Virus record (IMG/VR): IMGVR_UViG_3300036885_000101
Location: 1-57,822 of that record
Length of the DNA stretch: 57,822 nt
Strand: one strand, 5' to 3'
DNA from: a virus
Lineage: Duplodnaviria; Caudoviricetes
In this document: one piece after another, positions 2,120 to 44,201 of the stretch
Numbering within the stretch: the stretch's first letter is position 1
How the letters are laid out: each line of letters begins with the position of its first letter
Position numbers and translations under genes: made by a program
The notes under the pieces: generated by a model
Database searches by the model: none
Told to the model about the DNA's origin: nothing
The model's input: only the letters and a program-made list of their open reading frames with translations

Positions 2120-2120
2120 T

Positions 2121-3461: not shown

Positions 3462-3510
3462 AGACCGGTTCAAAAACTGAGGGCTATCAGTTTCAAAAGG
3501 AAAAAGTAAT

Positions 3511-3972: not shown

Positions 3973-3990
3973 TTTTTCACATTAACAGGG

Positions 3991-4018
3991 GTGCGGGTGT
4001 CAAAGCCCGCATCTCTTT
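3991..4018 (+). terminator. Putative intrinsic terminator after the head genes
   Basis: GTGCGGG-tgtcaaag-CCCGCAT stem followed by ctcttt. Confidence 0.55.
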
Positions 4019-4031
4019 AAAAAAGGGAAAT

Positions 4032-5353: not shown

Positions 5354-5369
5354 AAAAGGATTCGAGGGC

Positions 5370-11021: not shown

Positions 11022-11866
11022 TGTATACCTTCGATTTTCTCAGAGAAGTAATTCACGGAGATAAATCCCGCGCTGCCGCCGACATCGTTATTGACGGTGA
11101 ACCGACATACGAACAGGCGCAATTTATCTGCAATAATTCATGCATCATCTTTTGCAAGACCGACTACATTTTCATGCTGTTTGAAATACTTTTAACAAGT
11201 CCTAATAAAAGATACATTCTGATAACGCACAATTCAGACTATGCAATTGATTTCAGGTATTGGGAGAACAAGCCTGACAATATTCTTCGGTGGTACGCTC
11301 TCAATGTGGCGTACAAGCATCCCGACCTTGTGCCTATCCCAAGCGGAATGGAGCGGCCTTTAGGATGTGGATATTCAAGCGATGCAAATGTTCTTTTCGA
11401 GCAAATGCAGAAGCCAAGGACAATAAAAAACCTTGCGTACATGAACCACAATTCAAATAATAATCACGGTGAAAGGGATGTCGTTGACAGCCATTTTGAG
11501 GGCAAGTCCTGGGTAACTGTGAGGAAGCATGGAACTTCTTTCAAGGATTTTATTGAGAATTGCCACAACCATAGCTTTGTTATCTCTCCTCCTGGCAATG
11601 GCATTGATTGTCATCGAACTTGGGAAGCTTTATACATGGGTGCTATACCCATAGTAAAGCGTAGCCTTGTTACTGAGGCTTTTGTTGACTTGCCTATTTT
11701 GATTGTCGAGGATTGGACAACGATCACAGAAGAAATATTGAATATAGTTTTAGAAGAGTTCAAGGAAATGAAATTTAACTATGAAAAATTAACATTGTCC
11801 TATTGGATTAATAGGATAAAATCAGATAAAATTTATTTGAAAGAGGGCGCAAATGAACAAACCTGA
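11021..11866 (+). CDS. Exostosin/GT47-like glycosyltransferase
   Basis: ILITHNSD, PIPSG and FVISPPGNGIDCHRTWEALYMGAIPIV. Confidence 0.8.
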   Translation: MYTFDFLREVIHGDKSRAAADIVIDGEPTYEQAQFICNNSCIIFCKTDYIFMLFEILLTSPNKRYILITHNSDYAIDFRYWENKPDNILRWYALNVAYKHPDLVPIPSGMERPLGCGYSSDANVLFEQMQKPRTIKNLAYMNHNSNNNHGERDVVDSHFEGKSWVTVRKHGTSFKDFIENCHNHSFVISPPGNGIDCHRTWEALYMGAIPIVKRSLVTEAFVDLPILIVEDWTTITEEILNIVLEEFKEMKFNYEKLTLSYWINRIKSDKIYLKEGANEQT

Positions 11867-12431
11867 TTTTGGCCGTGATCGGTTCGAGGGGCAAATGAAT
11901 CCTTCGGAACGGGAGATTCTTTACGACTTGGTTTTGCAGGAAAGGCCTGATGTGGTCTGCGAGATTGGAACGTGTCGCGGCGGTGGATCAACATATTTCA
12001 TTGCAAAGGCATTGCATGCCAATGGAAAAGGAAAGCTCTATACTTGCGAGAATAACAAAGAATACTATGAATACGCTCGGGCTCTTTATGCCGGTAATCC
12101 TGATTTTGCAGGGCTTGAGGAATATGTACGCTTTCATTTTGGAGATAGCGAATATTGCTTTCATCGAATATTTGAAGGTGGTTTTGATGGTGGCATTGAC
12201 ATCGTTTTTCTCGACGGCGGCGCGGACTCAATAAAAATGGTCTATGACTTTGCAATGTTCCGGCCATACATACCGATAGGAAAATGGCTTGTTATGCACG
12301 ATTGGAACAACGGGAAAAGCGATTACATAAAGCCGATATTGAATGATGATAAAGATTGGAAATTCGTCAAGCAAGAAATCGGTCTTGTTGTTTTTCAGCG
12401 CATTGCTGACATTCACGGGAGCAATTCATGA
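11853..12431 (+). CDS. Class I SAM methyltransferase (Methyltransf_24-like)
   Basis: VCEIGTCRGGGST, IDIVFLDG, VMHD. Confidence 0.85.
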   Translation: MNKPDFGRDRFEGQMNPSEREILYDLVLQERPDVVCEIGTCRGGGSTYFIAKALHANGKGKLYTCENNKEYYEYARALYAGNPDFAGLEEYVRFHFGDSEYCFHRIFEGGFDGGIDIVFLDGGADSIKMVYDFAMFRPYIPIGKWLVMHDWNNGKSDYIKPILNDDKDWKFVKQEIGLVVFQRIADIHGSNS

Positions 12432-13597
12432 AAACAAGGCTTGCCCTAAATATTATCGTTGGAGCCGGTGACGGCCCTGTTCTTAATCGCCTTATGTCAT
12501 CATATGACATGAAGAAATTATTTGATGAAATTGTCATTGTAAGAACAACGGACGATCAGGAAGTCATTTCGGTCATTAACCAATATGCCGACAAAACAAC
12601 CAAGTTTGAATGGAATACCGAAGACTTTCCTAAAGGGAACTTCGGCGGCGCTCGTGATGCGGCAAGGCTTCTGACCAATTCGGAATGGATCATGTGGCTT
12701 GATTCAGATGATATGCTCGCTTCCGAAGAGGATATGGAAAAAATATTTACTAAGATAAAATCAATGCTCGCCGCTAATTCTGACCGCGATTATTTCGTGT
12801 TACCGTACATCCTTGGCATCTCCGATAAAGGTGAACCGATGAATGTTATTTCTAGGGAGCGTATTTTCAAACGAGAATCTACAATCAAATGGGTAAAACC
12901 TATTCATGAACAACTGACAATAAATACCGAAATACACAAGCGGGCTGACTTGAACGGCCTTGATATTCTGCATTGCCCGGTAAAGACCGGCGAACAAAGC
13001 GCGTCAAGAAACATCGAAATACTTGAAAACGAATATCTGAAACCGAATAGAGAGCGGCACGACGCTTTTTATTATGGCCGTGATCTTATCCAGTTGGATA
13101 AGTGGGAGAACGCTATTTCGATCCTTGTTGATTTCATTGAGACCGCCAATGAAGATTTGAGCTGCGTTTACGATGCTTCTTTGCTCATTGCAAAGTTTTT
13201 CATGTACAAGCAATTGCCGGACAAAAAACAGACCTCGCTTTGCGAAACTACGTCACCAATTGCCGAACAGTACGCGAGGATATGCCTATCAATAACGGAA
13301 TCGAATGCGGAGCCTTATACCGTCCTTGGCGATGTTTACATATCGCAGAGACGAAATAGGGATGCAATCAGGATGTTCAAGCAGGCAATGACAAAGCAGT
13401 TCGGGACCGGGAGCCTGCAAGACCGCTCGTTCTACGAGGAAATGCCAGCACGAAGGCTTGCCGAATTGTTTGTCTGGGAGAACGAACTTGAGCAAGCGAT
13501 ATGGTATAACAAAGTGGCAATGAAGCATTGTCCCGAAGATAAGAACTTGATTGAACAGCGAAAAAAGATCATCACCAAATTGCAAGAAACGGTATGA
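12428..13597 (+). CDS. GT2 glycosyltransferase with C-terminal TPR repeats
   Basis: FGGARDAA..WIMWLDSDD, W..PIHEQL, FYYGRD, TPR-like helices. Confidence 0.88.
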   Translation: MKTRLALNIIVGAGDGPVLNRLMSSYDMKKLFDEIVIVRTTDDQEVISVINQYADKTTKFEWNTEDFPKGNFGGARDAARLLTNSEWIMWLDSDDMLASEEDMEKIFTKIKSMLAANSDRDYFVLPYILGISDKGEPMNVISRERIFKRESTIKWVKPIHEQLTINTEIHKRADLNGLDILHCPVKTGEQSASRNIEILENEYLKPNRERHDAFYYGRDLIQLDKWENAISILVDFIETANEDLSCVYDASLLIAKFFMYKQLPDKKQTSLCETTSPIAEQYARICLSITESNAEPYTVLGDVYISQRRNRDAIRMFKQAMTKQFGTGSLQDRSFYEEMPARRLAELFVWENELEQAIWYNKVAMKHCPEDKNLIEQRKKIITKLQETV

Positions 13598-18038: not shown

Positions 18039-19316
18039 ATGTCTGATTTCACATATACACTTTCTGGCGGAAACGCTACAATAACCGGGTATACCGGGGC
18101 GGGTGGTGCTGTCACAGTTCCATCAACAATTGATGGATACCCTGTTATTGCTATTGGAGATAATGCTTTTTATGGAAATGCTTTAATTACTCATGTGATT
18201 ATTTCAAGCGGAATAACAACTATTGGACAAAGTGCATTTTCTGGATGTCCTTATTTGGTTGATGTAATTATCTCGGCAACAATTACGCATTTAGGAAATT
18301 GGGCAATTAATTATTGTCCCAATCTTCTTTCTGTCACATTTTTAGGCTCTGTTCCTCCATCTCTTGATGGTGGGGTATTCGACGGTGAACATGCTGGATT
18401 TATAATTTATTATCAGCCTGGTCCATTATGGACAAATCCTTGGCATGGATACCCTACTTCACCTATTCTTTTGCCTGATGGAAAAATGAGATTTACCGAC
18501 AATAATGGTAACACTGTTGACGTTACGATACCCGAATACGGGTACAAATCTGTAATATCTTTTCCGTTTGACATTGACACGCTTGATACTGGAATAAAAA
18601 CAGTATTCGCCTATGATAATACGCTCGACAAATACCATTGTGAATGTGATTTGATTCTCAATGAAACTGATATGCTTTCCTTCAATTCATGGATGAAAGA
18701 TGCAGCACTTGGAAGGGCAAAGAATAATTGCACTTTACAGATGAATGCTAATTCGGGGTTTTTTCCTTTCACGCCGTTGCATGGAGATGCGGGAATATTC
18801 ACTGTAGGAATATTGGTATCAAAATCCGAAAAGGTTCAAGATAACCCTTTCAGATATTTCAAGATTTCAATATCAATTTTCAAGCAAAGTACATTCCCAG
18901 CATATACATTGCAGAGTCAAATAAACGAGGGAAGTTTATCAATTGGAACTGTGAACAATATCCGCTTTCCTGAAAGTTATTTCGACTCCGATGAGGATAA
19001 TTCAATACAGAGCAACGTCGATGAGAGCGGGACATTGAATTTTATTGACCGTGGTCGCATTGCTTCATCGTGGAGAACAGCAATAAAGCTTTCGGCCGGA
19101 ACCGGAAAGGCGGCGGCAATCCTGGATTACCTTATCAATACGGCTCGCGCCGGAAACTTTGCTTTGACTACTCAGGCATACCATTATGCCTTCGGACGCG
19201 ACAAGGGAAGCAATTCAGCGTATACGGTTTCATTAATACAAGATAGCATCGAAGTGACTCATGAGCTTTTCAATAAATTTGTTTTCGATCTTAACGTACA
19301 ATACATAGCAGGTTGA
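18039..19316 (+). CDS. BspA-type LRR domain fused to a distal-tail-like protein
   Basis: ATITGYTG..VTVPSTIDGYPVIAIGDNAF..ITTIGQSAFSGC repeats; follows the tape measure. Confidence 0.7.
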   Translation: MSDFTYTLSGGNATITGYTGAGGAVTVPSTIDGYPVIAIGDNAFYGNALITHVIISSGITTIGQSAFSGCPYLVDVIISATITHLGNWAINYCPNLLSVTFLGSVPPSLDGGVFDGEHAGFIIYYQPGPLWTNPWHGYPTSPILLPDGKMRFTDNNGNTVDVTIPEYGYKSVISFPFDIDTLDTGIKTVFAYDNTLDKYHCECDLILNETDMLSFNSWMKDAALGRAKNNCTLQMNANSGFFPFTPLHGDAGIFTVGILVSKSEKVQDNPFRYFKISISIFKQSTFPAYTLQSQINEGSLSIGTVNNIRFPESYFDSDEDNSIQSNVDESGTLNFIDRGRIASSWRTAIKLSAGTGKAAAILDYLINTARAGNFALTTQAYHYAFGRDKGSNSAYTVSLIQDSIEVTHELFNKFVFDLNVQYIAG

Positions 19317-22300: not shown

Positions 22301-22818
22301 TCAAGGTAACGAATATCGGTTTCGAAAATCCTACCGATGCACAAAAACTTTCCTTTGTCATCGGATGTCAAAGCCAATCGTCGGCAACATATATCTATGA
22401 TAAGTGCAAGGACATTTTCAAGCGTGCCGGGGCGGTCGAGCCAGCACCAAGCGATATGACAGACCTTGATTTCGTCCATGATTACGATACCGCTTTGCAA
22501 CATTTGATCGACTGGATTAATTGGATGTACAATCCTGAAATCAGTTTCAAAATACCTACAAGTTCCGTCGATGGATGGGAAGAGTGTCACCGTTTTATCA
22601 TTCAATTACCGCACCAAACGGACAACGTAGAAATTGAATGCTTGCTTGAAGAACATACAATCAACCCGAACAATGAGCACGAATCAGTTATCAAAGCAAT
22701 TATGTTTTCAGATACAATACCGGAAGGGTTTAGCTTTCAGGATTCTTTGCAATTGATCGGGCAGCTTTCGCAAGACACTAATATTTTAAGCAATCCCTTA
22801 AAACAAGCTGGTAACTAA
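19318..22818 (+). CDS. Large tail tip / hub protein
   Basis: 1166 aa in tail-tip position; GKIVPISLG motif. Confidence 0.65.
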   Translation: MSETVYGVQIKLEDRALPVTAGIDFGLYNRVYNLSLSIPKNATVAHVATLSINLLENRLPITIHDGVHSESNIITSIDPTNGILGLLWPTTQGYNISGGKVQADSVFQLIQNDIAGLDSSWKSGVLMQDGIGNFSRKIDLKRMGNIASPGSCTIELKNTNQFHKEMNDRGVYFNGQIAKIFKFTGTSKSQKWIGECQKPTWTSKRFKIPVNGIYNKRISNISTVISNDPVSGNYKLAGDNANGKIVPISLGKLYPVTGAPNRYAKFLRTSEKQTTLTNDDGVGNYCLPRGIDIFPLIGYGDSSSTAHLAYKIEFGTSAVGTFQLDLSGKYIQVIVGGSSDGTSFVGKYRKIVKHVQLSGTSANGSPIITGISSTVDFLVGTKIKCSAGFASSLFDYTILSKTSTTITLDANSNSSGGLTVVQGYYFISQGDTAYIVLESFFEKDLYAVSGAIDSPPALNAWVKIVDIPFEFKADEWPCDGFTDESGVPIVSGDYPRLAAYGHVVSSSTAPIVQGVTIPDVSFIQIPTFGYLVDLSAAGKNRLIMDLKLFKDSPDTMSTFSIFPCKNLTDYIAANLGLFGFAGVVNKTSGGTGNAYSGHGVVGNLAQQIFSPGAFDRDDSTYEKRIIVGNLEESSDFSIWSAFDFDLPLDKLVIEYDAYYIGVNFASSNANGLYITDGRFLMMYRRFLGNAKVMNSNFNYSGSIFSKYMESQSPYLGFENLSRIDNLPDYYYLKRALRDNNKAFYFSIDTSATHLFSITGLSLFNISDFTTIDNIKSIIKASLVYGIEGATDIGIVNQTVRIIELALICEKSFNIASDLYAMFIGRIYNDTFGGRKTTTDYPSDPVNMLEMICRLQGGSENDFTDVNGWGHSYWKNALIKTTGDGSFDDAVDPDLASIKTLDCGGQILDYKNAQTNDIKRKLCYQFGMANWVDANGNECVKPIRKGIHSPTDIITIYDILDRSSIEVNYPDPVDLYAEPFVQYNKNPATGNYDSIIKVTNIGFENPTDAQKLSFVIGCQSQSSATYIYDKCKDIFKRAGAVEPAPSDMTDLDFVHDYDTALQHLIDWINWMYNPEISFKIPTSSVDGWEECHRFIIQLPHQTDNVEIECLLEEHTINPNNEHESVIKAIMFSDTIPEGFSFQDSLQLIGQLSQDTNILSNPLKQAGN

Positions 22819-23171
22819 TGGCAAGCGATAACATATACAATCAGCCTGGCGCACAAAAAATATATCTTACTCTTGCCAATCAGACCGACGAAGTATTGAC
22901 TGATGACATGGGAAAATGCAAAATTGCTGTTTCAACAGATGAAAAACTCCTTAATTATACTGATGATGTTGGAACAAAACATAAATGCGCCGAATACGGG
23001 AGTAGTGGAACATCCATTGATATTTTTGCTCCGGCCTCATGGCCCGCTGCGGTTGCGGATCACCCGATACTGTTTCTCGACAGCGGCAGCGGGAACCTGA
23101 TGATACGCATGCCGACGAATAGCCCGTTTGGAGGCGTGGCGAGAGAAATAAACGCGAGTGACCCATTATAA
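22818..23171 (+). CDS. Small tail/adaptor protein (hypothetical)
   Basis: Translationally coupled to the upstream gene. Confidence 0.5.
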   Translation: MASDNIYNQPGAQKIYLTLANQTDEVLTDDMGKCKIAVSTDEKLLNYTDDVGTKHKCAEYGSSGTSIDIFAPASWPAAVADHPILFLDSGSGNLMIRMPTNSPFGGVAREINASDPL

Positions 23172-23180
23172 AGGAAAAAC

Positions 23181-26060
23181 ATGAAATACCTTTTTATCTT
23201 ATTTCTGTCAACCTGTTGTTTTGCCATTAATCCACGTACATCATGGCAGTCAGGTATGTTTAGGGATAGCCTTCAAGACTCCGCAGTTCTCTCCGCCCCC
23301 TTTCTTGGTACGGCGGCAAATGGGAAAATTATAGAAAGCCATGCAAAGGCAGATTCTTCAAAACTTGCAGATTCTTCAAAGCGTGTTGACAATCGTTATT
23401 TATTATTACACGCTAAAGCCGATTCTGCTGTCAAGGCCGACACTTCTTTGCGTTATGACAATCGTTACCTTGGACTGCATGCAAAGGCGGACTCATCTGT
23501 AAAATCAGATACGTCAAAAAAATACGACAACCGATATTTGGGCTTACATGCAAAGGCGGACAGTGCGGTCAAGGCCGACACCGCCCTTCACGCCCCGAAT
23601 CACAACGTGACAATCGGCACGATCCCCGTCAGCGCCACGGCGAGTACGTGGGGGAATAGTATTATACAAGACAACGGAACCGCTATCGGCGTGAATCGCG
23701 CCCCGCTTGCGCCTTATATTGACGCAGTGCGGGCGACTGCCACAAATGCAAACAACAGTGTCTTTAGATTTGATGCAGTTGACACTTGCAATACCGCAGG
23801 AACATTTAACAACTCATCCACTGAGGCGTATGCCTACGAGTATGATAATGGATCAACCAACAGTGGAAGCAATATTGGGTTTTATGCAGAAGCGTTGAAG
23901 AAATCAGGCGGTGGAACATTGACAGACAATGCAGCGTTCAGCATAAATTTTGGAAACGCAAGCGCGGGAACGCTTACAAATAACTATGGTATTTCGTTGA
24001 CGCAAAACAAAACCGGCAACATAGGAACTTCTTATGGATTAAAATATTCAACGTTGGGAGCAGGAACTGTTACAAACGATTGGTTTTTGTACTCTAATGT
24101 AAATTCTCCGTCATGGTTGACAGGATCATTGGCTGTTGGAGGAAACGTAACACCTATTACCCCGCTTGCTTCTTTGCACTCAATAAATGTTGCATCGAAC
24201 AGCGGCTCAGGCATTCCAAACTGCGCCTTGTATCTTTCCGGCAGTGGTGGGACGACAGTTACTGACGGCGTAAGTTTAGTTTTCAACCCTATTTACAATT
24301 CATTTGCATCGTACAAAAACTGGATAGGCGGGGTGCAAATTTGTGCAATGAAGCAGGCGGTAAACTATGATTGTGACATGGTGTGGTATCTCAACACAGG
24401 GACATCTCAAACGTCAACGGCAGAGGCTATGCGGTTAATCGGTAGTACAGGCGCGCTGAAGCTTGCGCAATATGGTACAGGCAGGCCGTTGTTTACATCC
24501 GGTACAATGTCGTTAGCACCCCTGACCGCCGCGGAGTGCGCGGAGGCGGTGAGTGGGACGACGAATTATCTGGCAAGATTTACAGGCGCAAACACCGTTG
24601 GAAATGGTTTGGTGTATGACGATTTGACAAGTGTCGGAATTAATTGCGCACCGCAGACTATTGGTGCACAGATTAAAACGCTGGATATCAGATCAGGAAC
24701 GCATAATTCTGGCGATGGTGCCGGTTTATTGCTTGGTAAAGATAATGCAAAAAAAGGTGTGTTTTATACTGTCGATGACAATTTGTATATTGAGAGTATT
24801 TCCGGCTATACGGATATTGATAATCTTAAGGTAGGCATTAACACGCTAAAACCATATGGGGGAACTGGCGTTGGGGGGCTCACAATTAATGGACTATATT
24901 ATCCAGTATTAGATTTTCAGTATCATGGCGATACCAGTATGTGTTTAATGTCAGGATCAGTTAGTCATTTTGATATTACTACTAATGGAAACAGGTACTT
25001 GTCTTTCGGAACAAATGATTTAGAACGGATGCGTATTCTTTCCAATGGCAAGGTTATTGTTGCCGGAAATGATAGTATTGGTGGAGATTTGCATGTCAAC
25101 GGTGCGACGTATACCACAAATATTGGTTTGGGAACCGTAGGTTTGATAGATTGTTATGCAAACACCCCAGGATTGACAATTAATGCCACAACAGGAAACT
25201 TAATATTACAAGCATCTGGCGGAAATGAGGTTCGGGTTTTCTCGAATTTTAAGGTTACAGGAAATGACACCGTGGTTGGAAACGACACTATTGGTGGGGA
25301 TTTAAAAATAGGCGGTGCGACTTATACCAAATCTGTTGGTTTAGGTGCTGTTGGCTTGATAGACGTTTATATGAATTATCCCGGCTTGACAATCAACGCA
25401 ACGGCAGGGGATATGACGCTGATGGCGACCGGGGGAAACAAGGTCAAGGTCATGTCTAATTTATATGTTTCCGGGAACGATACGATAGGTGGGAAATTAG
25501 CCGTTCTTAATGATAAAATCTTCACCCATTATATCTACGGAAATTCAGGTTCTCCAGATGATACAATAGATGGGTTTGTTTTTAAAAACTGTAGTTTTGG
25601 ATTTCCAGATTGGAATTTCTTTGAGAATATTGGTGGTGGTGATCGTTCATTAATATTTTATAACGGACGGTCATTTGGTACTAGTATAACATTCGACACC
25701 CTTGGTGATGTTTATAGTAATGACTATCATGACTATTTTAATTCGTCAACAAAAAACGGATGGGCAAGTTATGTTTCTGGAACCATAAATATAAAATCAA
25801 TCGGCAAAACCCTTTTTTGCGAATTCAATATAGCGGGGACAGCAAATAGTGATGTAGTCACTTATTTTTCATTACCGGTTACACCTGCTTTTTCGTATTG
25901 GCAATCAACCTGTGTCTTGACTCTTAACGGAACAACAAGTATTGGAATTGTTGAGTATTTTAGCACTAATACAATAGCAATTTACACAGGATCAGGGAGC
26001 AATCTCCCAACATCAGGAAACAAAACAGTGAACGGATCCTTTTCGTTTCAAATAAAATAA
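23181..26060 (+). CDS. Tail-fibre-like protein with N-terminal signal peptide and internal repeats
   Basis: MKYLFILFLSTCCFA; GTTNYLARFTG..VG, ERMRILSNG and AEAMRL fibre motifs; 23-aa and ~71-aa repeats. Confidence 0.75.
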   Translation: MKYLFILFLSTCCFAINPRTSWQSGMFRDSLQDSAVLSAPFLGTAANGKIIESHAKADSSKLADSSKRVDNRYLLLHAKADSAVKADTSLRYDNRYLGLHAKADSSVKSDTSKKYDNRYLGLHAKADSAVKADTALHAPNHNVTIGTIPVSATASTWGNSIIQDNGTAIGVNRAPLAPYIDAVRATATNANNSVFRFDAVDTCNTAGTFNNSSTEAYAYEYDNGSTNSGSNIGFYAEALKKSGGGTLTDNAAFSINFGNASAGTLTNNYGISLTQNKTGNIGTSYGLKYSTLGAGTVTNDWFLYSNVNSPSWLTGSLAVGGNVTPITPLASLHSINVASNSGSGIPNCALYLSGSGGTTVTDGVSLVFNPIYNSFASYKNWIGGVQICAMKQAVNYDCDMVWYLNTGTSQTSTAEAMRLIGSTGALKLAQYGTGRPLFTSGTMSLAPLTAAECAEAVSGTTNYLARFTGANTVGNGLVYDDLTSVGINCAPQTIGAQIKTLDIRSGTHNSGDGAGLLLGKDNAKKGVFYTVDDNLYIESISGYTDIDNLKVGINTLKPYGGTGVGGLTINGLYYPVLDFQYHGDTSMCLMSGSVSHFDITTNGNRYLSFGTNDLERMRILSNGKVIVAGNDSIGGDLHVNGATYTTNIGLGTVGLIDCYANTPGLTINATTGNLILQASGGNEVRVFSNFKVTGNDTVVGNDTIGGDLKIGGATYTKSVGLGAVGLIDVYMNYPGLTINATAGDMTLMATGGNKVKVMSNLYVSGNDTIGGKLAVLNDKIFTHYIYGNSGSPDDTIDGFVFKNCSFGFPDWNFFENIGGGDRSLIFYNGRSFGTSITFDTLGDVYSNDYHDYFNSSTKNGWASYVSGTINIKSIGKTLFCEFNIAGTANSDVVTYFSLPVTPAFSYWQSTCVLTLNGTTSIGIVEYFSTNTIAIYTGSGSNLPTSGNKTVNGSFSFQIK

Positions 26061-26118
26061 GGAGGTTTTTAATGAAAAAGAAATTGTTGTTTCTATTTAT
26101 CCTTTTAGGAGGTGACTT

Positions 26119-26436
26119 GTGAAATCATTAATTATCATTCTCGCTCTCGCGTCGGTATTGTTTGCCCAGGACAGCGTTACCGTTACCCCTGTTGCAAAGA
26201 GATATGTGGTAGTGCAAGGAATTAATATAAACCCGGCGAGCAGAATGGTTGACGCGGTAACTCCCGTAGAATTATATCCGTATATCTCAGCGGACACAAT
26301 GCAGAAAAACTTGCCGCCGTTTAGAATAAACAGGTTGACATGGAAATATTCTGATTTTGGGGCTGACAGTGTGGTTTTTATCAAGGCTGCGGCGCTGGTC
26401 ACGGCAAAAGTAAAAGCAAGGATCACACTGAAATGA
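26119..26436 (+). CDS. Small secreted protein
   Basis: GTG start with AGGAGG; MKSLIIILALASVLFA signal peptide. Confidence 0.65.
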   Translation: MKSLIIILALASVLFAQDSVTVTPVAKRYVVVQGININPASRMVDAVTPVELYPYISADTMQKNLPPFRINRLTWKYSDFGADSVVFIKAAALVTAKVKARITLK

Positions 26437-26615
26437 AACAGTTCCTTTGCAAGCTTGGTCTTCACTATTGGGAATACTCTCTTAATAAGAAGGTGCGCTA
26501 TTGCATTCGTATAGGGTGCGGGAAGAGGCAGTATTTCAACGGGGTTCTTTGGTTTGATGATAGGCGAAAACAAACAACCGGAGAGGAACGCAACAATGCA
26601 GTACGTAAAAGATAA
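26433..26615 (+). CDS. Small Cys/His protein
   Basis: ATGA overlap; LCKLGLHYW..C.R.GC pattern. Confidence 0.5.
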   Translation: MKQFLCKLGLHYWEYSLNKKVRYCIRIGCGKRQYFNGVLWFDDRRKQTTGEERNNAVRKR

Positions 26616-27027
26616 GTCGATGCAAGATGACCCAACGCAACGTGAAGGTGATAACGGTAATATACCGACAGCTACACAGCGGCGTTTTGATATTGAGTAT
26701 GAGATCGAGCAGAAAAGGAAAATTGAATTTGATGCTATTAATGGGAAAATTGCAATTCTTAATGACAAAATCGGCGGCATTGAAAAGCTAGTTACTGAAA
26801 TTCATGAGGCTCTTAATGGTCTGGTCAGTGAACGTGGCGCTCTTAGCCGGTTGGAACTCGTAGAAAGTAACCAAGAGCTTTTAGCGGAAAAACTGAAAGC
26901 CTTAAATAAAGAAATGGAACAGTTTAAGTTGATAGACAATACTGTTCTGATTGCACACGCTGTTGACTTAATGGCGCGGCTTGAATCAAAACTGGACCAC
27001 CCGCGCAGGGGTGAGTATGGCACCTGA
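26596..27027 (+). CDS. Coiled-coil hypothetical protein
   Basis: GGAGAGG RBS before ATG 26596. Confidence 0.55.
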   Translation: MQYVKDKSMQDDPTQREGDNGNIPTATQRRFDIEYEIEQKRKIEFDAINGKIAILNDKIGGIEKLVTEIHEALNGLVSERGALSRLELVESNQELLAEKLKALNKEMEQFKLIDNTVLIAHAVDLMARLESKLDHPRRGEYGT

Positions 27028-27286
27028 AAACCGCAGAAATGTTGACAATGTACGTTCGATAGTTCGTGACATTGTTTCGGGTGGTACCTTTCTCGGGCTG
27101 ATTGGGTTGGTGTTCTACGCTGGGCAATTGGTAGAACGATTCGACAATTTTTGCAAGACGCAAAATGAAATAAACATAAAAACCAATGAACGGATAATTC
27201 AGACATCGAACGACGTTTCTGTTTTGCGGGATTGGAAAGTGGCATCAACGCAGCAACCGTTTTATAAAATTTCGGGTGAAAAATGA
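27017..27286 (+). CDS. Single-TM coiled-coil protein (holin/antiholin-like)
   Basis: TM segment GTFLGLIGLVFYAG followed by coiled coil. Confidence 0.45.
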   Translation: MAPENRRNVDNVRSIVRDIVSGGTFLGLIGLVFYAGQLVERFDNFCKTQNEINIKTNERIIQTSNDVSVLRDWKVASTQQPFYKISGEK

Positions 27287-27993
27287 TTCCTTCGCTTCTC
27301 ATTATCTTCCTTTTCATCGGCCATAGCAATATGACTGGTTATTGTGCTGCTATGGACACGGTGACAAATCAGCATGTTTACAGTTATGACGTGAAGCGCG
27401 GGTTTTACAATTGCACAGACCGAGACCTTGGCGGTGGAAGCGGTTCACCGGTAATGCCGTTTCTTAAGCGCATGTCGACGATGTATCCGGGGTACAATTT
27501 TTGCGGAATACGGTTTGCGGGACCATGCAGGCAGGCTTTCCACGTCTATTCTGAACAGCGACACCGTGAAGCAATCCATAATATTGTGTCACAAGTAAAG
27601 GACAAGGGCATGTTCGGCGGGGTATTGCTCATGTTTGGCGTGATAGAAAATCAGTACGATGGTGTTGACAGTCTTGAGTTGTCTCTTATCAAATTGGTTG
27701 CTTTTCTCAGGGCTGAAACAGGTGTAAAATTGCCGGTAATTCTTGGAAGGTTTGAAGAAAATGGAGATAAAATTCAGGGTGCGCCCATGTTTAAACACGA
27801 AAAACAAACAGTGAAAATTATAAATGGTATGCCGCAACTGATTGAAAATCTTTCCTTGACACCTTTTAAACCTGTTCCGAAAAGCGACTTTTGCGACAAC
27901 CATCATTATGATTCTAACGGATATAAAATCTGGTCGCATGACGCGGCAACAATTTACAAATATAACGGTTATGACGAATGGAGTAGACCATGA
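27283..27993 (+). CDS. SGNH/SASA-family carbohydrate acetylesterase with hydrophobic N-terminus
   Basis: FLFIGHSNM nucleophile block and C-terminal DNHHY. Confidence 0.75.
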   Translation: MIPSLLIIFLFIGHSNMTGYCAAMDTVTNQHVYSYDVKRGFYNCTDRDLGGGSGSPVMPFLKRMSTMYPGYNFCGIRFAGPCRQAFHVYSEQRHREAIHNIVSQVKDKGMFGGVLLMFGVIENQYDGVDSLELSLIKLVAFLRAETGVKLPVILGRFEENGDKIQGAPMFKHEKQTVKIINGMPQLIENLSLTPFKPVPKSDFCDNHHYDSNGYKIWSHDAATIYKYNGYDEWSRP

Positions 27994-29837
27994 AACGCAT
28001 ATTTTACTTTCCTGGCCTAAAGTTAAATAAGAAATTCCTTATTTTACTTTCCGTTCTCGTTCTGGCGCTGGCGGCAGGGGCGACCCCTACGCACAGCGGG
28101 AGGACGTGGACGGCGGCAACGTGCGGGTATGCGGATGTGCAAGAGGCGTATGACTCATGCCCTGAAAACGGCGTGTTGATTGTTCCATCCGGTTCTGCAA
28201 CATATACCGGCACGCAAAGAATTACCATAACGAAAGCGATACATATTCACGGCCAAGGTCCTACACCTTCCGGCAAGGCCAAGGGCAGCGGGGCTAATGC
28301 TCCCGTACTCACTCCCGCAACTACATATCAAGGGTGGTATTATTGGGGCATCTTTGAAATCTCTCCGACCACTGATAAACGAATAAGAATCTCAAATTTC
28401 AATTTTACCACGGCGGCGCACACTTACCCTTATATCCGCATCAATGGAAGCACGTCGAATGGCACGGCTTTGACCAAAATCCGCATTGACCATTGCACGT
28501 TTAATTTTGGGAGCGCTCAAACAACCGTGACGGGAAATGTATGCGGGGTCATTGACCATTGCATATCTGTGAATGCAGACATAGGTGTGATGCTGAGTGG
28601 AGACGATCATTATTCTTGGCATCGGGCAATAACGGCGGGAACGGCAAATGCTTGGCATATCGAACAGGACTCATTAGTTATTAATGGAAGTTTTGGAGCC
28701 GATAATTTACGACAGCCGGTTTATCAACAGGATGGGGCGAGATCGACGACTCGCTACAATACGTTTGACGCTGTCGGATATACGAGCCAATACGGACTCC
28801 TTTGGGATTCGCATGGGTATATGCCATGCGTTACGGGGTGCCGTGGACAACCGATTGTCGAGGTGTACAATAATCAATTCAAGGTTTATCGAACCTATGA
28901 TTTTACTGATAGCCGGGGCGGGTCAAATATATGGCATGATAACAATTTCACTTATGTAACTTCTGGAACCGACCCTATGCAATTACGTGATGAACAAGCA
29001 TGGACTTCGGGCGGGTTTTGGTGCCCTACTCCTGGGCCGTGCCCGTATTCGTCTCGATGGCCGTCTATGGATCAGATCAATAATAGTTTTTATTGGAACG
29101 ATACTTTACAAGGGGTGGTAATTACCGATATCACGCTAAGCACCTCGACGGAAATACCATACATCGTTAAAGACCGGGATTACTTCATGCACGCGCCTGC
29201 GGCAACGGGTGGTTATGAGTCATGGCCGGACAGCGCAGGGTCGATGAATATGACCTTTACGGCAGGAACGCAGCTTTATTATCCGTACACGCCTTACACC
29301 TACCCGCACCCACTGACACGCTCCTGTTATTGGAAAGATAGCGCGAATAGAATCGGAGCGAATAGTTTCTATGTTATTGACACTTGTTATAATGATACTG
29401 GCACAATCAGAATTTATGCGACCGTAGACACAGCCTCTTGGGGAAGCAGCAAGGCAAGCGCGGTTGTCGGGCCGGGAACGCGCTGTACTCTTAGCGCGAC
29501 AGGCGTTGCATCTGGCAAAAATCAGGTTCGCATGACGTTCACCGGCGCAGATTATTCGGCGGGAATAACCGATACTTTCCGCTTTGCGGATTCTACAGTC
29601 GGGACAAAAACTCCGATTACGCTTGGTTATACGCCAAAAGCATTTCATCGCGGGTTGAACGGCAATCAAGCGGCGAGTGTTACTGGAAATATATTAAAAG
29701 TGATATTTGTAAATAAGACCTTATTCCCACCACCACCTGGAATTTTAGTGGATTCAACAACCGGAAACTTTCATGGAACAGCGACAACGAAACATACGGA
29801 AATAGCTGTTCCTGTTGCAGCAATACCGCAACCATAA
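27990..29837 (+). CDS. Secreted pectin-lyase-like beta-helix protein (glycan binding / depolymerase)
   Basis: Signal peptide; DVQEAYDSC..LIVPSGSA, IDHCTF, VEVYNNQF, YTPYTYPHPL. Confidence 0.7.
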   Translation: MKRIFYFPGLKLNKKFLILLSVLVLALAAGATPTHSGRTWTAATCGYADVQEAYDSCPENGVLIVPSGSATYTGTQRITITKAIHIHGQGPTPSGKAKGSGANAPVLTPATTYQGWYYWGIFEISPTTDKRIRISNFNFTTAAHTYPYIRINGSTSNGTALTKIRIDHCTFNFGSAQTTVTGNVCGVIDHCISVNADIGVMLSGDDHYSWHRAITAGTANAWHIEQDSLVINGSFGADNLRQPVYQQDGARSTTRYNTFDAVGYTSQYGLLWDSHGYMPCVTGCRGQPIVEVYNNQFKVYRTYDFTDSRGGSNIWHDNNFTYVTSGTDPMQLRDEQAWTSGGFWCPTPGPCPYSSRWPSMDQINNSFYWNDTLQGVVITDITLSTSTEIPYIVKDRDYFMHAPAATGGYESWPDSAGSMNMTFTAGTQLYYPYTPYTYPHPLTRSCYWKDSANRIGANSFYVIDTCYNDTGTIRIYATVDTASWGSSKASAVVGPGTRCTLSATGVASGKNQVRMTFTGADYSAGITDTFRFADSTVGTKTPITLGYTPKAFHRGLNGNQAASVTGNILKVIFVNKTLFPPPPGILVDSTTGNFHGTATTKHTEIAVPVAAIPQP

Positions 29838-29846
29838 GAGGAAACC

Positions 29847-31976
29847 ATGAAAAAATTAATTATTATTTTACTTTGTTTTGGCTTGTCATTTGCAACAAAC
29901 TTAACGAAACACATACGATATGGTGGAGATTATCGAAGCGTACAAGGGTGCTTGGCGGCAAATACCGGAATGACGCAGGATACTCTTAATATTTCTGTGG
30001 ATAGCTGTTTTGTTGATACCGCCATAAATACAAACAGTTATTCAAAAGTAATTAATATTTTTGCCTCATCCGGGAACTATTCAACGACAGGGGCATGGGA
30101 CCCGACAAAGTATTATATCAACGAAGTGGGAGCTGGCGCTACTCCGGCCATTAATATTAAAAGCACTCATGTTAATCTTTATAATTTACAGATAGAAGCA
30201 ACCTCTCCTTCAGCAACAGGAGAGGATTGCATACAATTCACATTCGGTTCCGCAGGCGGGGTCCATCGATTTCATAATCTCATTATAAAGGGACACAACA
30301 ACGGAACATATTCACAATCTGGCATTAACTTCAAAACCACTGCCGAAAATTTATACATGTGGAATTGCATACTTTACAATTTCGGGACAGTTTCTTCCAC
30401 GTACCCGATTTCCGGTAACTCATATGCCGATAGTGTATGGATGTATAATTGCGATTTGATTGGCGGTGTTTTTGGAGTATATACCGGCGGTGCCACTGGA
30501 GCTCAATGGATAGTAAAAAACTGTTATTGTGGCGGCGGCTCATCAGATCGTTATTACGCATCAACCTATTTAACAAAAACAACTTGCGCGTCATCGGACG
30601 GAACAGGCTCTACAGGGTTGATCAATATTGCGTATTCAACCGCGAATTTTACCAATGTTACCGGTGGAAGCGAAAATTTTGCATTGACAAGCGGAAGTGC
30701 CTTGCGAGGGACGGGAACTTATACCGGCGGTGATCTTGCCCCAATGAATTTTACTACAGATATAACGGGGTACGCTTATACAAATCCACCGTCGATAGGC
30801 CCATTTGAATACCCGGCCTCGTATTGCGTCACTACAGTTTCAGCAACGGCGGGAGGCTCGATAACCACTCCGGCGACGGGCAAGGATTCAAGCGTTTGCG
30901 GTGGAGCGGTTTCTATCGTCGCGGCAGCGAACACGGGCTATAGTTTCAACGGGTGGACAGCGACGGGGTCCGTAACTTTTGTCAATGCGGCGTTGACCAC
31001 GACCACGTTTACGAGCAGCGCCACGGGCGGGGCGATCACGGCCAATTTCATCGCCGCGCCCGGCCCGATCAGCTATACTGGCGGCAACATCTCAGCAACC
31101 TACGGCCTCGGCGTTGCGGTGGACTCTGTATGGCATACGATGACTATGAGTAACGCAGGAGGGGCTTTGGATAGCGTCCGCAGTCATCCGGCGCTCTCTA
31201 CATGGGGATTGACCCTCGGCGCGGACGGATCGATCTCCGGCACACCCACGACGTATACGCCGGGAGATTCCGCGTTGACGGATACCATAATCGGATACAA
31301 CGCGATAGGCTCCCAAAAATGCACGACATACGTTACAATCCAGATTTTGCACCAGGGCGGCGTGTGGACCTACGATCGCCTCACCGTGGACACGATGAGC
31401 CTGTATACCATGCAAGTCTACGCGGGCACGGGTGGAATCGTTTCCCCGTCCAGCGTGACGGACAGCCTGAGCCACCCGTTTAGCGCCATGGCAATCCCGG
31501 CAGCGTATCACGTCGTCGGATCGCCTGTATGGTCCCTACGTGCGGGCGGTACTGTGACCGTCAACGCGGCGGCAGGGAGTTTTCGTCTGTTCGGCCCAGA
31601 CACGGCGGATGCGGCGTTTTCGTGGGCCACGCCGGTCGCGCCCACGCTCTACACGCCCAACCAGAACGACAGCAACCAAGCGACGAATCTCAATCTTGTA
31701 TGGAGGTCGAACACAGCCGATAGTGTGTATTATCTCTGGTACGACACGACGCTTTCCTTCAACAGTCCGTTTCTTGTCAAGGACACGCTCGCGGACACAT
31801 CAAAAAACGTGATTCTCGGCCTGACAAACTCGTGGTACCACTGGAAGGTTGCCGCTGGAAACAACGGCGGGACAACAAGCTCCTTTTCGTCGCCCAGGAC
31901 GTTTAAGACCATGAGCGCGTACAGGAGGCGGCATGGCGGGATGAATATAGGGATCGGCATCGGAATCGGCTTTTAA
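29847..31976 (+). CDS. Secreted beta-helix + InlB-B/Ig/Fn3-like protein; candidate head fibre
   Basis: MKKLIIILLCFGLSFA; DITG..PSIGPFEY; ANTGYSFNGWT; YHWKVAA; C-terminal MNIGIGIGIGF. Confidence 0.7.
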   Translation: MKKLIIILLCFGLSFATNLTKHIRYGGDYRSVQGCLAANTGMTQDTLNISVDSCFVDTAINTNSYSKVINIFASSGNYSTTGAWDPTKYYINEVGAGATPAINIKSTHVNLYNLQIEATSPSATGEDCIQFTFGSAGGVHRFHNLIIKGHNNGTYSQSGINFKTTAENLYMWNCILYNFGTVSSTYPISGNSYADSVWMYNCDLIGGVFGVYTGGATGAQWIVKNCYCGGGSSDRYYASTYLTKTTCASSDGTGSTGLINIAYSTANFTNVTGGSENFALTSGSALRGTGTYTGGDLAPMNFTTDITGYAYTNPPSIGPFEYPASYCVTTVSATAGGSITTPATGKDSSVCGGAVSIVAAANTGYSFNGWTATGSVTFVNAALTTTTFTSSATGGAITANFIAAPGPISYTGGNISATYGLGVAVDSVWHTMTMSNAGGALDSVRSHPALSTWGLTLGADGSISGTPTTYTPGDSALTDTIIGYNAIGSQKCTTYVTIQILHQGGVWTYDRLTVDTMSLYTMQVYAGTGGIVSPSSVTDSLSHPFSAMAIPAAYHVVGSPVWSLRAGGTVTVNAAAGSFRLFGPDTADAAFSWATPVAPTLYTPNQNDSNQATNLNLVWRSNTADSVYYLWYDTTLSFNSPFLVKDTLADTSKNVILGLTNSWYHWKVAAGNNGGTTSSFSSPRTFKTMSAYRRRHGGMNIGIGIGIGF

Positions 31977-31994: not shown

Positions 31995-32339
31995 ATGAAC
32001 TTATCGGCAGAACAGAATGCATTCTTGCTCGATTTTGCCAAGTTGATCGAATTTATCTACAATTCCGGCGACGGCATGCTCGTGACCGAAGGCGAGGGAT
32101 ACCGGACTGTTGAGCAACAGCAAATCTATTTCAACACCGGGAAATCAAAAACCATGAACAGTAATCATCTAAGGCGGCTTGCCCATGACGTCAATTTTAT
32201 CAAAAACGGACAGATGGTTACCGACAAGGTAACGCTCCAAAAATATGCCGATTATTGGAAAAGTCTAAACCCGCTTAACCGATGGGGGGGAGAATTCTCA
32301 AATCTGTACGATTACGATCACTTTGAGCGTAATGTATGA
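31995..32339 (+). CDS. Endolysin, M15 family peptidase
   Basis: GEGYRTVEQQ, SNHLRRLAHD, RWGG..DYDHFE. Confidence 0.9.
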   Translation: MNLSAEQNAFLLDFAKLIEFIYNSGDGMLVTEGEGYRTVEQQQIYFNTGKSKTMNSNHLRRLAHDVNFIKNGQMVTDKVTLQKYADYWKSLNPLNRWGGEFSNLYDYDHFERNV

Positions 32340-32443: not shown

Positions 32444-32839
32444 ATGTTTTCCCGAATTCCGTTTCTGTTCGTAATGATTCTGATGGTTGTCGGCGTTTCT
32501 ATGGTATTTGCGGATACCACAGCAACGGAAGCGCAGGGGCCGTGGTATGTCCAGATCCTTGTGGCCGCGATCCCGGCGCTTGTAGTGTACATTACCAGCC
32601 AAATCCGCAGCCACGCTAAAGACGGAACGATCAAAGAACTTGCTTTAGTGGCCCAAAAAGTCAAGCCGTATGAACCGATAGCCGAAGAAGTGTTGTCGGC
32701 GCTGGAAGCAAAATATCCGGTTTTAAAAACAAACGTGACGAAAGTTGAAACCGTAATCCAAACTCCGATAGGCCAGGCAGTTAAGAATGCGGCGCAGCAG
32801 GTTGTAGAGAATTTACAGCCGACACCGGGGCAGGTTTAA
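32444..32839 (+). CDS. Holin-like membrane protein
   Basis: Two hydrophobic segments; next to the endolysin. Confidence 0.55.
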   Translation: MFSRIPFLFVMILMVVGVSMVFADTTATEAQGPWYVQILVAAIPALVVYITSQIRSHAKDGTIKELALVAQKVKPYEPIAEEVLSALEAKYPVLKTNVTKVETVIQTPIGQAVKNAAQQVVENLQPTPGQV

Positions 32840-32840: not shown

Positions 32841-33071
32841 GTGTGGATCAAGGCTCTTTTCGAAGCAATAGTCCTTCTGCTACAGCAGCTTGGCTATGTC
32901 GAGAAAAAAGTGGACGACGCAAGCGCAAAGAAACAAACACCGGAGGCGAAGTATGCGAAAGACAAGGAGGCAATGGATGAAGCACTCGCTAAAAATGATG
33001 TTGATTCTATCAACCTGCTTACTAATGACGTGCTGCCGCCACCCACGGGTAGTGGTGATCCCAAGCGATAA
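32841..33071 (+). CDS. Inner-membrane spanin (Rz-like)
   Basis: N-terminal hydrophobic helix and helical tail; overlaps a lipoprotein gene. Confidence 0.6.
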   Translation: MWIKALFEAIVLLLQQLGYVEKKVDDASAKKQTPEAKYAKDKEAMDEALAKNDVDSINLLTNDVLPPPTGSGDPKR

Positions 33072-33180
33072 CGCGGTTCACGGAATCACGGATTCGACGA
33101 TGGTCATATCCAAAGCTGAATACCAGAAGCTTTTCGATGCCGCCGCGTATTGGAAAAGCAGATGCGAGAGCGGCAAATAA
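32977..33180 (+). CDS. Outer-membrane spanin lipoprotein (Rz1-like)
   Basis: AAGGAGG RBS; MKHSLKMMLILSTCLLMTCC lipobox-like; overlaps the Rz-like gene in another frame. Confidence 0.7.
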   Translation: MKHSLKMMLILSTCLLMTCCRHPRVVVIPSDNAVHGITDSTMVISKAEYQKLFDAAAYWKSRCESGK

Positions 33181-33258: not shown

Positions 33259-33287
33259 TTGACAACACTGTTTAAAAGGTGTATATT
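33259..33287 (+). promoter_or_regulatory. Sigma70 early promoter P1
   Basis: TTGACA-N17-TATATT with TG extension; near-copy at 44173. Confidence 0.85.
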
Positions 33288-40639: not shown

Positions 40640-41047
40640 ATGTATAAAATAAAATACCGTGGCATATCTAAAGGCGGTAAGATCACGCTTGATCCAGGCC
40701 ACTTGGAAGCTTATAATGCAGCAGTGAGACGCTTAGAGGGTCAAAAGATAGAGGTAACGATATGCAAGCGCCAGAAGGCCAATACGCGCAGCGAGCAAAA
40801 GTATTTCTACGCTGTGATCGTGAAGATGATAGCCGATGAAATAGGTGAGAGCGAGACGCGAGCTTTTGAGATTATACAGGCGCAGTTTTTTGAATATGAG
40901 GATGCTAACGGACGGAAGTACATACGGTCAACGGCGCTTGGTGAATGGACAACGGTGGAGTGGGAAAGTCGGATGCAGGATATCCGGCAGTGGGCGCAGG
41001 ACTATTTAAACTTAACGATTCCAACGCCGAACGAAACAGACTATTGA
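40640..41047 (+). CDS. NinB/Orf-like protein
   Basis: RSEQKYFYAVIV..RSTAL..TVEW..I..WA..L.IPTPNE. Confidence 0.65.
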   Translation: MYKIKYRGISKGGKITLDPGHLEAYNAAVRRLEGQKIEVTICKRQKANTRSEQKYFYAVIVKMIADEIGESETRAFEIIQAQFFEYEDANGRKYIRSTALGEWTTVEWESRMQDIRQWAQDYLNLTIPTPNETDY

Positions 41048-41072
41048 CAGCGTGTTGAAATAGTGGTATATT
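41044..41072 (+). promoter_or_regulatory. Sigma70 promoter of the replication operon
   Basis: TTGACA-N17-TATATT. Confidence 0.8.
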
Positions 41073-44176: not shown

Positions 44177-44201
44177 CAATGCTGTTTAATCATTGTATAT
44201 T
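44173..44201 (+). promoter_or_regulatory. Sigma70 promoter P2, near-copy of P1
   Basis: TTGACA-N17-TATATT inside a ~50-bp block shared with 33245-33293. Confidence 0.85.

Follow-up and report, generated by a model that had tools for sequence, protein, structure and literature searches.

The window, the complete 57,822-base genome of a tailed phage (IMG/VR virus record IMGVR_UViG_3300036885_000101, analysed at its full length), holds on its + strand a block of genes at 23181–31976, between the tail genes and the lysis cassette, in which a tail fibre, a small neighbouring protein and two predicted sugar-cutting enzymes carry Sec-type leaders together with a more than threefold excess of the sequon D-[ST]-[AILVMT]. 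The leaders, the specificity of the excess, the conservation of both in related phages and the linkage between them can all be read from the sequence; since leaders and excess fall together on fibre and enzymes, parts of the block probably mature outside the cytoplasm. We propose that the four proteins (23181, 26119, 27990 and 29847; genes are named here by start coordinate) would be made late with Sec/signal-peptidase-I leaders, pass in unfolded form, late in infection, to the periplasm of a diderm host, fold there and receive O-glycans at their D-(S/T)-(hydrophobic) sequons from a host general system of the Bacteroidota type. The fibre would join the cytoplasm-built particle only once holin, endolysin and spanins merge the two compartments, docking by its conserved N-terminal module, possibly onto 22818. 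The remaining leader-bearing proteins 27990 and 29847, with the leaderless 27283, would form an accessory cassette, inserted before the endolysin gene, that acts as free enzymes. Taken as one scheme, export, periplasmic glycosylation, docking at lysis and free enzymes together stand at about an even chance of being right.

Signal peptides and D-(S/T) sequons

We scanned all 84 open reading frames (ORFs) with an n/h/c-region heuristic of our own; a Sec/signal-peptidase-I leader should have a positive n-region, an uninterrupted h-region of about 10–16 residues and small residues at −3/−1. Strong leaders appear in six ORFs only, namely the four above, the holin-like 32444 and the small membrane protein 52294, with h-regions of 13–18 residues, mean hydropathy of 2.6–3.1, positive n-regions and small −3/−1 residues; 5370 and 6630 give weaker, short matches. 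The four block leaders have a net charge of +1 to +5 and h-regions of 13–16 residues, and their predicted cleavage sites are CFA|I (23181), LFA|Q (26119), ALA|A or AGA|T (27990) and SFA|T (29847). Strong leaders are concentrated in the block (4 of 8 ORFs in 23181–31976 against 2 of 76 elsewhere; Fisher p = 5e-4), which bears out an original prediction of signal-peptide-like N-termini on these four proteins. Homologues keep them too, as leader-like starts occur in 8 of 9 fibre relatives found by a word-based search, in 19 of 33 long fibre relatives and in at least 87 of 156 members of the 27990 family. On this evidence, export of the four proteins through Sec is very probable.

Sequons were counted against a composition-corrected expectation from 2000 shuffles of each protein. 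All four proteins exceed it, with 11 sequons against 4.4 expected in 23181 (p =.0015), 3 against 0.3 in 26119 (p =.003), 7 against 2.5 in 27990 (p =.008) and 13 against 2.8 in 29847 (0 of 2000 shuffles; p below.0005), the last all in non-repetitive contexts. Pooled, the four hold 34 sequons where 10.0 are expected, a 3.4-fold excess that 0 of 2000 shuffles reached, at a density of 1.42 per 100 residues; the other 80 ORFs hold 43 against 42.2. The suspicion that Asp precedes Ser/Thr unusually often here, which had started from a hand count of 17 of 28 Asp in 29847, was thus well founded, and the hand count is exact. Over the whole set, Asp is followed by Ser or Thr in 51 of 121 cases in the four and in 118 of 974 in the other 80 ORFs, none of the 49 remaining proteins of at least 100 residues has a sequon excess at p <.05, and leader and excess are associated across ORFs (p = 5e-5).

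The excess is specific to the motif. A scan of all residue pairs ranks DS first in the four (27 versus 11.1) and DT sixth, both at expectation elsewhere, and of the 51 residues that come next after D[ST], 43 are A, L, V, I, M, S or C, one is Gly and only one is charged (Arg). None of the control motifs is enriched in the four, whether E[ST]x (1 versus 2.4), N[ST]x (7 versus 14.2), the reversed motif (8 versus 10.1), D[AG]x (9 versus 9.4) or D[ST] with a polar residue, Gly or Pro behind it (3 versus 9.1); Campylobacter-type N-sequons, D/E-x-N-x-S/T, likewise show no enrichment (0–1 per protein). The sections of PMC12871550 drawn on here give the Bacteroidota sequon as D-(S/T)-(L/I/V/T/A/S/M) on non-cytoplasmic proteins, with Asp essential, Glu not accepted, a preference for hydrophobic or small residues in third place and loss of modification when Gly stands there. 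The same sections report the motif as enriched across Bacteroidota (GTDB) and likewise in the sister phylum Fibrobacterota, and describe the function of the system as still unclear. In residue, direction and third position, the specificity in our four proteins equals this published sequon. Host O-glycosylation at these sites is the best account of an excess that is motif-exact, leader-tied and conserved, and we hold it to be rather probable, within limits set by the identity of the host.

Related phages carry the same arrangement. Searching with the 1,166-residue tail protein retrieved four contigs, three of them distinct (L025, L026/L027 and L028), and in 3 of 3 the order runs from the big tail protein through a 22818 homologue to a leader-bearing, sequon-rich fibre. 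The L025 fibre (925 residues, the only fibre-like gene there) has 14 sequons versus 4.4 expected; those of L026 and L028, both cut, have 10 versus 1.9 and 6 versus 2.4. L028 encodes an extra, leaderless fibre of 532 residues. A scan for the 22818 family found it on the L025, L026/L027 and L028 contigs only. A fibre with a small partner is, on these sequences, a conserved feature of the phage lineage.

An exhaustive search with 23181 yielded 208 relatives at E <=.001, and we split the 33 new ones of at least 400 residues by the presence of a leader. The 19 leader-bearing fibres hold 121 sequons against 50.7 expected (2.4-fold), whereas the 14 leaderless ones hold 43 against 43.8 (1.0-fold); 107 shorter relatives hold 98 against 122.5. 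Among the word-search relatives 8 of 9 are enriched at p <=.006, and the alignment of P0229, an enriched relative scored as leaderless, begins only at its residue 94, so that the start of this protein may be placed too far upstream. Because the 27990 family is mostly leader-bearing yet not sequon-rich (243 sequons versus 234.6 expected in the best 120 of its 156 members, 2 of the 120 at p <=.01), the excess is a trait of exported proteins of these phages and not of a fold.

The fibre, its neighbours and an accessory cassette

The 959-residue fibre (23181..26060, +) begins with a Sec-type leader at residues 1–15, MKYLFILFLSTCCFA|INP, and continues with 23-residue D-S/T-rich repeats (about residues 55–140), a long shaft and a C-terminal tip domain (about 830–958). 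Its gene sits in the fibre position behind the distal tail proteins, a place conserved in relatives. The protein has no match in Pfam, PHROG, NCBIfam or the PDB, and tblastn finds nothing like it in 50,697 phage records; its homologue P0123, the only one with a curated fibre-family match, ends in an endosialidase-chaperone domain (PF13884). Residues 1–51 are best conserved, at 72.5% identity to P0141, and similarity elsewhere lies in scattered segments of 30–57% identity, so that a conserved N-terminal module is joined to a mosaic remainder, as is usual for tail fibres. Three of the eight leader-like homologues from the word-based search, and P0141, keep the string LSTCCFAIN. LSTC|C in 23181 is unlikely to mark a lipoprotein (signal peptidase II), since Thr does not stand at −1 of the usual lipobox and other family members have no Cys; cysteine counts and conservation also give no clear disulfide signal. 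The tip domain (25641–26060, about 120 residues) is common to more than 100 small (130–300 residues), mostly leaderless metagenome proteins, has no PDB or PHROG match and is a candidate for a widespread, uncharacterised receptor-binding module.

Directly upstream lies the 117-residue ‘NIYNQPG’ protein (22818..23171, +), whose homologues hold the same place before the leader-bearing fibre in L025, L026/L027 and L028. It has no leader and no sequon excess (0 versus 0.7), and over its first 52 residues it matches the N-terminus of the leaderless 532-residue fibre of L028 with 52% identity (E 4e-16). This homology argues that 22818 is a fibre N-terminal module of the attachment type, standing alone where the next fibre is leader-bearing, and makes it a candidate for the baseplate-side anchor of the exported fibre. 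Alignment of the post-leader stretch of the exported fibre (…SDTFLVQQGG.IKRRT…) with the N-termini of leaderless fibres (…SDLLLVGD…) was not significant (hhalign probability 0.1, E 0.56). A complex prediction with three copies each of 22818 and of fibre residues 17–150 scored 0.00, which is no answer and carries no weight either way.

Downstream of the fibre, the 105-residue protein 26119 (26119..26436, +) has the leader MKSLIIILALASVLFA|QDS, with Gln at +1, and a GTG start preceded, 4 nucleotides upstream, by the strong Shine-Dalgarno sequence AGGAGGTG. L025 places a small leader-bearing, sequon-rich ORF (4 versus 0.3) at the same position, with no detectable similarity between the two mature parts. 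Judged by position only, 26119 is a candidate periplasmic partner or chaperone of the fibre. A 16-codon ORF at 26072–26122 (MKKKLLFLFILLGGDL, then a stop), with an AGGAGG site of its own, overlaps the GTG start in another frame; it resembles the first half of a signal peptide and could be the remnant of an older start or a device for translational coupling.

Three further genes of the block encode proteins for carbohydrate chemistry, as far as their folds suggest. The 236-residue 27283 (27283..27993, +) is a SASA-fold carbohydrate O-acetylesterase with no signal peptide. In Atlas its feature score to SASA clusters is 0.95 and 27 of 30 hits lie in the SASA family set; its Atlas structure superimposes on SASA domains with template-modelling (TM) scores of 0.81–0.87 over residues 1–234, which Atlas rates as sufficient for naming, the alignments starting at residues 1–4. 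Pfam SASA (PF03629) matches residues 8–25 at E.013 and 15.5 bits, below the 24.8 cut-off, and GHSNM at residues 13–17 is presumably the catalytic Ser block of the SASA/SGNH fold. The hydrophobic start noticed in the original prediction is real, but it is not a leader, because the fold starts at residue 1 and the n-region is uncharged, with no Lys or Arg before the hydrophobic run. The protein has no relatives in viral contigs, and its single-sequence AlphaFold2 model (predicted local distance difference test, pLDDT, 39.8) is unusable.

The 615-residue 27990 (27990..29837, +) is predicted to be an exported right-handed β-helix, with a leader made of a 15-residue basic n-region and then FLILLSVLVLALAAGA, a PL6-lyase-like core (residues 38–445) and a disordered, sequon-bearing extension (446–615). 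Its AlphaFold2 model, built from 68 sequences, has a mean pLDDT of 74 and mostly exceeds 90 in the core; helix 14–30, the leader, precedes the fold. Foldseek returns PL6 alginate lyase and chondroitinase B as best matches (7o7a, 7o78 and 1dbg; probability 1.00, E 8e-5 to 6e-4), with modest TM-scores to the PDB matches (0.26–0.36), and pectate-lyase-like phage proteins are nearest in BFVD; Pfam gives no match at E <=.01. We describe the protein as a PL6-like β-helix and predicted glycan lyase. Its 156 homologues include 87 with leader-like starts among the best 120, and directly past the leader the mature end of the family conserves A(T/A)…SCS..DV.

Closing the block, the 709-residue 29847 (29847..31976, +) combines a leader, MKKLIIILLCFGLSFA|TN, with a β-helix, an InlB B-repeat (Flg_new_2) domain (PF18998 at residues 329–402, E 2.5e-10) and a further β-rich C-terminal part; its Atlas neighbours are β-helix/fn3 proteins. 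Residues 26–335 are 35–37% identical to phage proteins, of which that of L004 bears a leader and those of L002/L003 and L005 do not. The end of the gene (31915–31976) encodes RRRHGGMNIGIGIGIGF, a basic cluster and then an alternating Ile/Gly tail ending in Phe, which fits no recognised sorting signal.

In L025 the small ORF is followed by two small proteins and then the endolysin. That relative therefore goes from fibre block to endolysin, and 27283–29847 is an insertion in the window phage, accessory to it. The original prediction had, in its main reading, taken 27990 and 29847 for appendages of the virion. Its claim of export and glycosylation is supported by the sequence statistics, by conservation in the three relatives and by the way in which sequon excess goes with a leader; the appendage part suits these two less well, as they have the β-helix architecture of cellular proteins, lack an anchor domain and are absent from L025, and ‘secreted enzyme’ fits them better. 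More likely, then, 27990, 29847 and the leaderless 27283 are free enzymes that would degrade or deacetylate surface glycan. An unrelated 11.7-kilobase viral contig, L004, has four consecutive leader-bearing ORFs (1302–5812), including homologues of 29847 (3240–4445) and of the 27990 family (4442–5812); the four are not sequon-rich (0, 0, 2 and 3 motifs). Enzymes of the 29847 and 27990 types seem to move as a linked, exported pair, in phages of other hosts as well as here.

Genome type and host

The record is of the direct terminal repeat (DTR) class and 100% complete, with an exact 127-bp terminal repeat at the window ends; every sizeable ORF lies on the + strand and the window has no tRNAs. 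Family scans identify a small (50235) and a large (50764) terminase, a portal fused to a Mu-F domain (52918) and, near the portal, an NAD-dependent sugar epimerase (55729–56661), all on the + strand, then a protease-like protein of 677 residues (86, +) and an HK97-type capsid protein (2121, +). Inside the structural module, between head and tail genes, lies a gene cluster (6889–13597) for the handling of sugars and methyl groups: 6889, the N-terminal half of 8749 and 12428 are glycosyltransferase-like, the C-terminal half of 8749, 10212 and 11853 are methyltransferase-like, and 10940 is RXYLT1_C-like. Among the relatives, L025 and L028 show similar N-termini. In mycobacteriophages virion proteins are glycosylated in the cytoplasm; the cluster here might do the same, or might re-tailor the lipid-linked glycan of exported proteins.

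The tail genes run on the + strand through a BspA-type leucine-rich-repeat (LRR) tail protein of 425 residues (18039–19316; LRR_5, E 1.7e-12) to the 1,166-residue protein 19318 and then to 22818; in the place of 18039, L025 and L028 have a different, shorter protein. Behind the block, and also on the + strand, come an M15_4 endolysin (31995–32339; Pfam and PHROG matches), a holin-like protein with two transmembrane segments (32444–32839, from its hydrophobic segments) and a nested i-/o-spanin-like pair recognised by pattern only (32841–33071 and 32890–33180), in which the 32890 frame is embedded in 32841 and bears a lipobox-like LSTC. Replication and recombination genes found by the family scans are an exonuclease, Erf, DnaB, an SNF2 helicase, a ParB-like gene and SSB; there is no integrase among the proteins scanned. 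The portal of the nearest cultured phages is only ~25% identical, the block has no DNA or protein match in the 50,697 phage records, and Tandem Repeats Finder detects no DNA-level tandem repeats in it. The phage belongs to a siphovirus-like lineage. Between terminase and portal, a 109-residue protein (52294–52623) has a leader- or lipobox-like start (…SVIICTAGA|DT) and two more hydrophobic stretches; two sequons stand immediately past its leader (2 versus 0.4 expected, p =.055).

To judge by the spanin-like pair, the host should have an outer membrane and with it a periplasm. A Shine-Dalgarno match of at least 5 nucleotides precedes 36 of 84 ORFs, against 10% of random positions, and 4 of 20, 5 of 13 and 8 of 14 ORFs in the relatives. 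Three intergenic promoter-like sites on the + strand (33259–33287, 41044–41072 and 44173–44201) share the identical hexamers TTGACA-17-TATATT, are probably early or middle promoters for a sigma-70-type host polymerase, and belong to a type of site that numbers 46 against 32.3 ± 5.2 expected; TAnnTTTG is at chance (48 versus 47.3), as is a two-part pattern (2 versus 1.8). Bacteroidia are not known to use Shine-Dalgarno sequences, and their promoters are of the TTTG/TAnnTTTG type. The Flavobacteriia phage phi18:3, our control, bears out the first point, with a Shine-Dalgarno match at 2 of 45 coding sequences (CDS). These signals amend the original prediction, which drew on a Bacteroidota motif: the host is probably not an ordinary member of Bacteroidia. 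The fibre motif TTNYLAKFTG occurs at 19 loci in the species-genome collection, 14 of them labelled Bacteroidota; the capsid protein has 3 weak matches (24–28% identity) in a sample of 401 Bacteroidota genomes; relatives of the epimerase are metagenomic only; and megablast and tblastn against the 50,697 phage records return no relatives above 26% identity. Our best guess from these signals is a host outside class Bacteroidia, for which another Bacteroidota class or Fibrobacterota fits better.

Routes of maturation and known systems

Docking of the fibre on the virion is a possibility to which we give slightly less than an even chance. Its position, its mosaic anatomy, the tip domain shared with leaderless proteins, PF13884 in P0123 and the homology of 22818 to the L028 fibre all speak for it, and gp085–087 of phi18:3, leader-bearing and annotated as structural from tandem mass spectrometry (MS/MS), may serve as a cultured precedent. 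Fibre-less particles and free fibres are said to join in vitro in work on T4, which makes docking after lysis physically plausible. A fuller and more tentative picture, which we would call doubtful as a whole, has head and tail built in the cytoplasm and the Sec-exported fibre, folded with its partner and coated with host glycan, docking at lysis on the split anchor of the 22818 family, with a D-S/T glycosylation system at work outside Bacteroidia. The 22818 family would then correspond to what is an N-terminal domain in ordinary fibres, produced here as a baseplate protein of its own, and the phage's glycosyltransferase, methyltransferase and epimerase genes may re-tailor the fibre glycan.

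Several observations tell against export, host glycosylation or docking. The Gln-at-+1 rule of Bacteroidota is obeyed by 26119 alone among the four. Our leader calls come from a heuristic of our own, and the source database starts the gene for 23181 at Met26 and so drops its leader. From these last two points one could argue that the hydrophobic N-termini are over-extended starts or uncleaved tethers of proteins assembled in the ordinary way in the cytoplasm. We find this very improbable: the homologues P0126 and P0129 keep the leader though they have no equivalent of Met26, gene spacing favours the upstream starts (the upstream ATG of 23181 lies 9 nucleotides past the preceding stop and 27990 starts in an ATGA overlap), a strong Shine-Dalgarno sequence precedes the leader of 26119, and the same type of start recurs in 87 of the best 120 of 156 27990 relatives and in 19 of 33 long fibre relatives. 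The sequons raise objections of a different kind. Seven of the 11 in 23181 lie inside protein-level repeats (KADSAV, GNDTIGGDL) and are therefore not independent of one another; leader-bearing cellular proteins of Bacteroidota genomes that share the fibre motif have sequons near expectation, and phi18:3 gp085–087 are not sequon-rich either, so export alone does not predict the excess; and Shine-Dalgarno and sigma-70 signals speak against Bacteroidia, the only group in which the glycosylation has been demonstrated. The repeats and the host signals speak for a reading in which the proteins are exported while their D-S/T-hydrophobic excess is a β-rich structural motif or a target of the phage's own 6889–13597 cluster, in a lineage that has three glycosyltransferase-like genes, several methyltransferase-like genes and a sugar epimerase. 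We rate this improbable, given the 13 motifs of 29847 in non-repetitive contexts, the lack of any excess in the best 120 of 156 members of the 27990 fold and in leaderless fibre homologues, and the match to the published motif down to its intolerance of Glu and of polar third residues; cytoplasmic glycosyltransferases would also leave an enrichment confined to leader-bearing proteins unexplained.

The placement of the fibre in the particle is where a third explanation applies. All four proteins could be exported and glycosylated with none of them in the virion, secreted or displayed on the surface to mask or destroy receptors or to dissolve capsule or matrix; the purpose would be superinfection exclusion or keeping progeny off debris, and the particle would adsorb through the 1,166-residue tail protein and the LRR protein 18039. 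Particle mass spectrometry can include co-purifying secreted proteins, so the phi18:3 annotation does not prove incorporation, and no virion-anchor domain is recognisable in 27990 or 29847. To this one may add the leader-then-β-helix architecture that 27990 shares with its cellular leader-bearing family, the accessory status of a 27283–29847 cassette absent from the closest relative, L025, the four consecutive leader-bearing ORFs of phage L004 with homologues of both enzymes, the exported, surface-displayed, tail-fibre-like trimers of Bdellovibrio (PMC10769870, in the sections drawn on here) and the other candidate receptor binders of the tail. Set against these are a leader-bearing fibre in canonical position in 3 of 3 relatives, the sole fibre-like gene of L025 among them, a conserved N-terminal module with a mosaic distal part, which is typical of virion fibres, and the annotation of the leader-bearing phi18:3 proteins as virion proteins from MS/MS. 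We consider this explanation unlikely for the set of four as a whole, and favour export and glycosylation with free action of the enzymes and possible docking of the fibre.

In textbook accounts, tailed phages are put together entirely in the cytoplasm. If true, maturation of a fibre in the periplasm with host glycan attached would be a new assembly route, would give phages a new means to shield or disguise receptor-binding proteins, and would add a new substrate class for the Bacteroidota-type O-glycosylation system. In practical terms, gene calling and annotation may cut off leaders of this type, as at Met26 of 23181; when such fibres are produced in the cytoplasm of E. coli, for host-range studies or for use as depolymerases, they may fail to fold properly or lack their glycans; and the hosts of uncultured phages could be predicted with the help of a sequon excess on proteins that bear leaders.

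Leaders are well known on phage lysis proteins and lipoproteins. For Sec-exported, sequon-loaded tail fibres we found no published description, and the consulted portions of the literature, including PMC6199706, PMC5723332, PMC10367356, PMC5776456 and PMC8143477, do not describe Sec-exported fibres of tailed phages, though supplementary gene lists might differ. PMC10367356, in those portions, sets out the Gln-at-+1 rule in Bacteroidetes and reports Q-rule leader-bearing proteins of unknown function in Porphyromonas phages. The closest phage parallel is Cellulophaga phage phi18:3 (NC_021794, Pachyviridae), which like the window has a run of large leader-bearing proteins, three in succession (gp085–087), just upstream of its lysis genes, with Gln after the cleavage site in each (…FGYS|QV, …GVSA|QT and …GLNA|QT). 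Its record lists them as virion structural or tail proteins ‘based on experimental MS/MS proteomics analysis’ and says nothing on leaders. Unlike the window phage, phi18:3 is a podovirus of a Flavobacteriia host that makes no use of Shine-Dalgarno sequences; its three proteins are not sequon-rich (1 against about 3 expected in each), and tblastn within the phage collection shows no similarity to 23181 or 27990.

Cellular systems supply the other likenesses. The O-glycosylation substrates of Bacteroidota resemble our four proteins in being non-cytoplasmic and in having the same sequon specificity, and differ in being cellular; phages go unmentioned in the text of PMC12871550 that we searched (0 occurrences). 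Sequon density in the four (1.42 per 100 residues) is far higher than in leader-bearing cellular homologues from Bacteroidota genomes. The predicted core of 27990 shares the right-handed parallel β-helix of PL6 polysaccharide lyases and phage β-helix depolymerases. In classical tailspikes the N-terminal domain binds the particle and there is no leader, whereas 27990 goes from leader directly into helix, as its cellular relatives do. For the fibre, the counterpart is the mosaic adhesive trimer (MAT) fibre of Bdellovibrio bacteriovorus as presented in the sections of PMC10769870 drawn on here: a tail-fibre-like, modular, trimeric adhesin, exported and displayed outside the cytoplasm, in some cases with an S74 chaperone domain. 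Since MAT fibres are exported, fibres of this kind can fold after export; they differ from 23181 in being cellular proteins of a predator and not phage genes, and those sections report no sequon excess. Beside these systems, the window contributes a siphovirus-like lineage, a contrast between leader-bearing and leaderless members within one fibre family, a split-anchor arrangement and signs of a host outside Bacteroidia.

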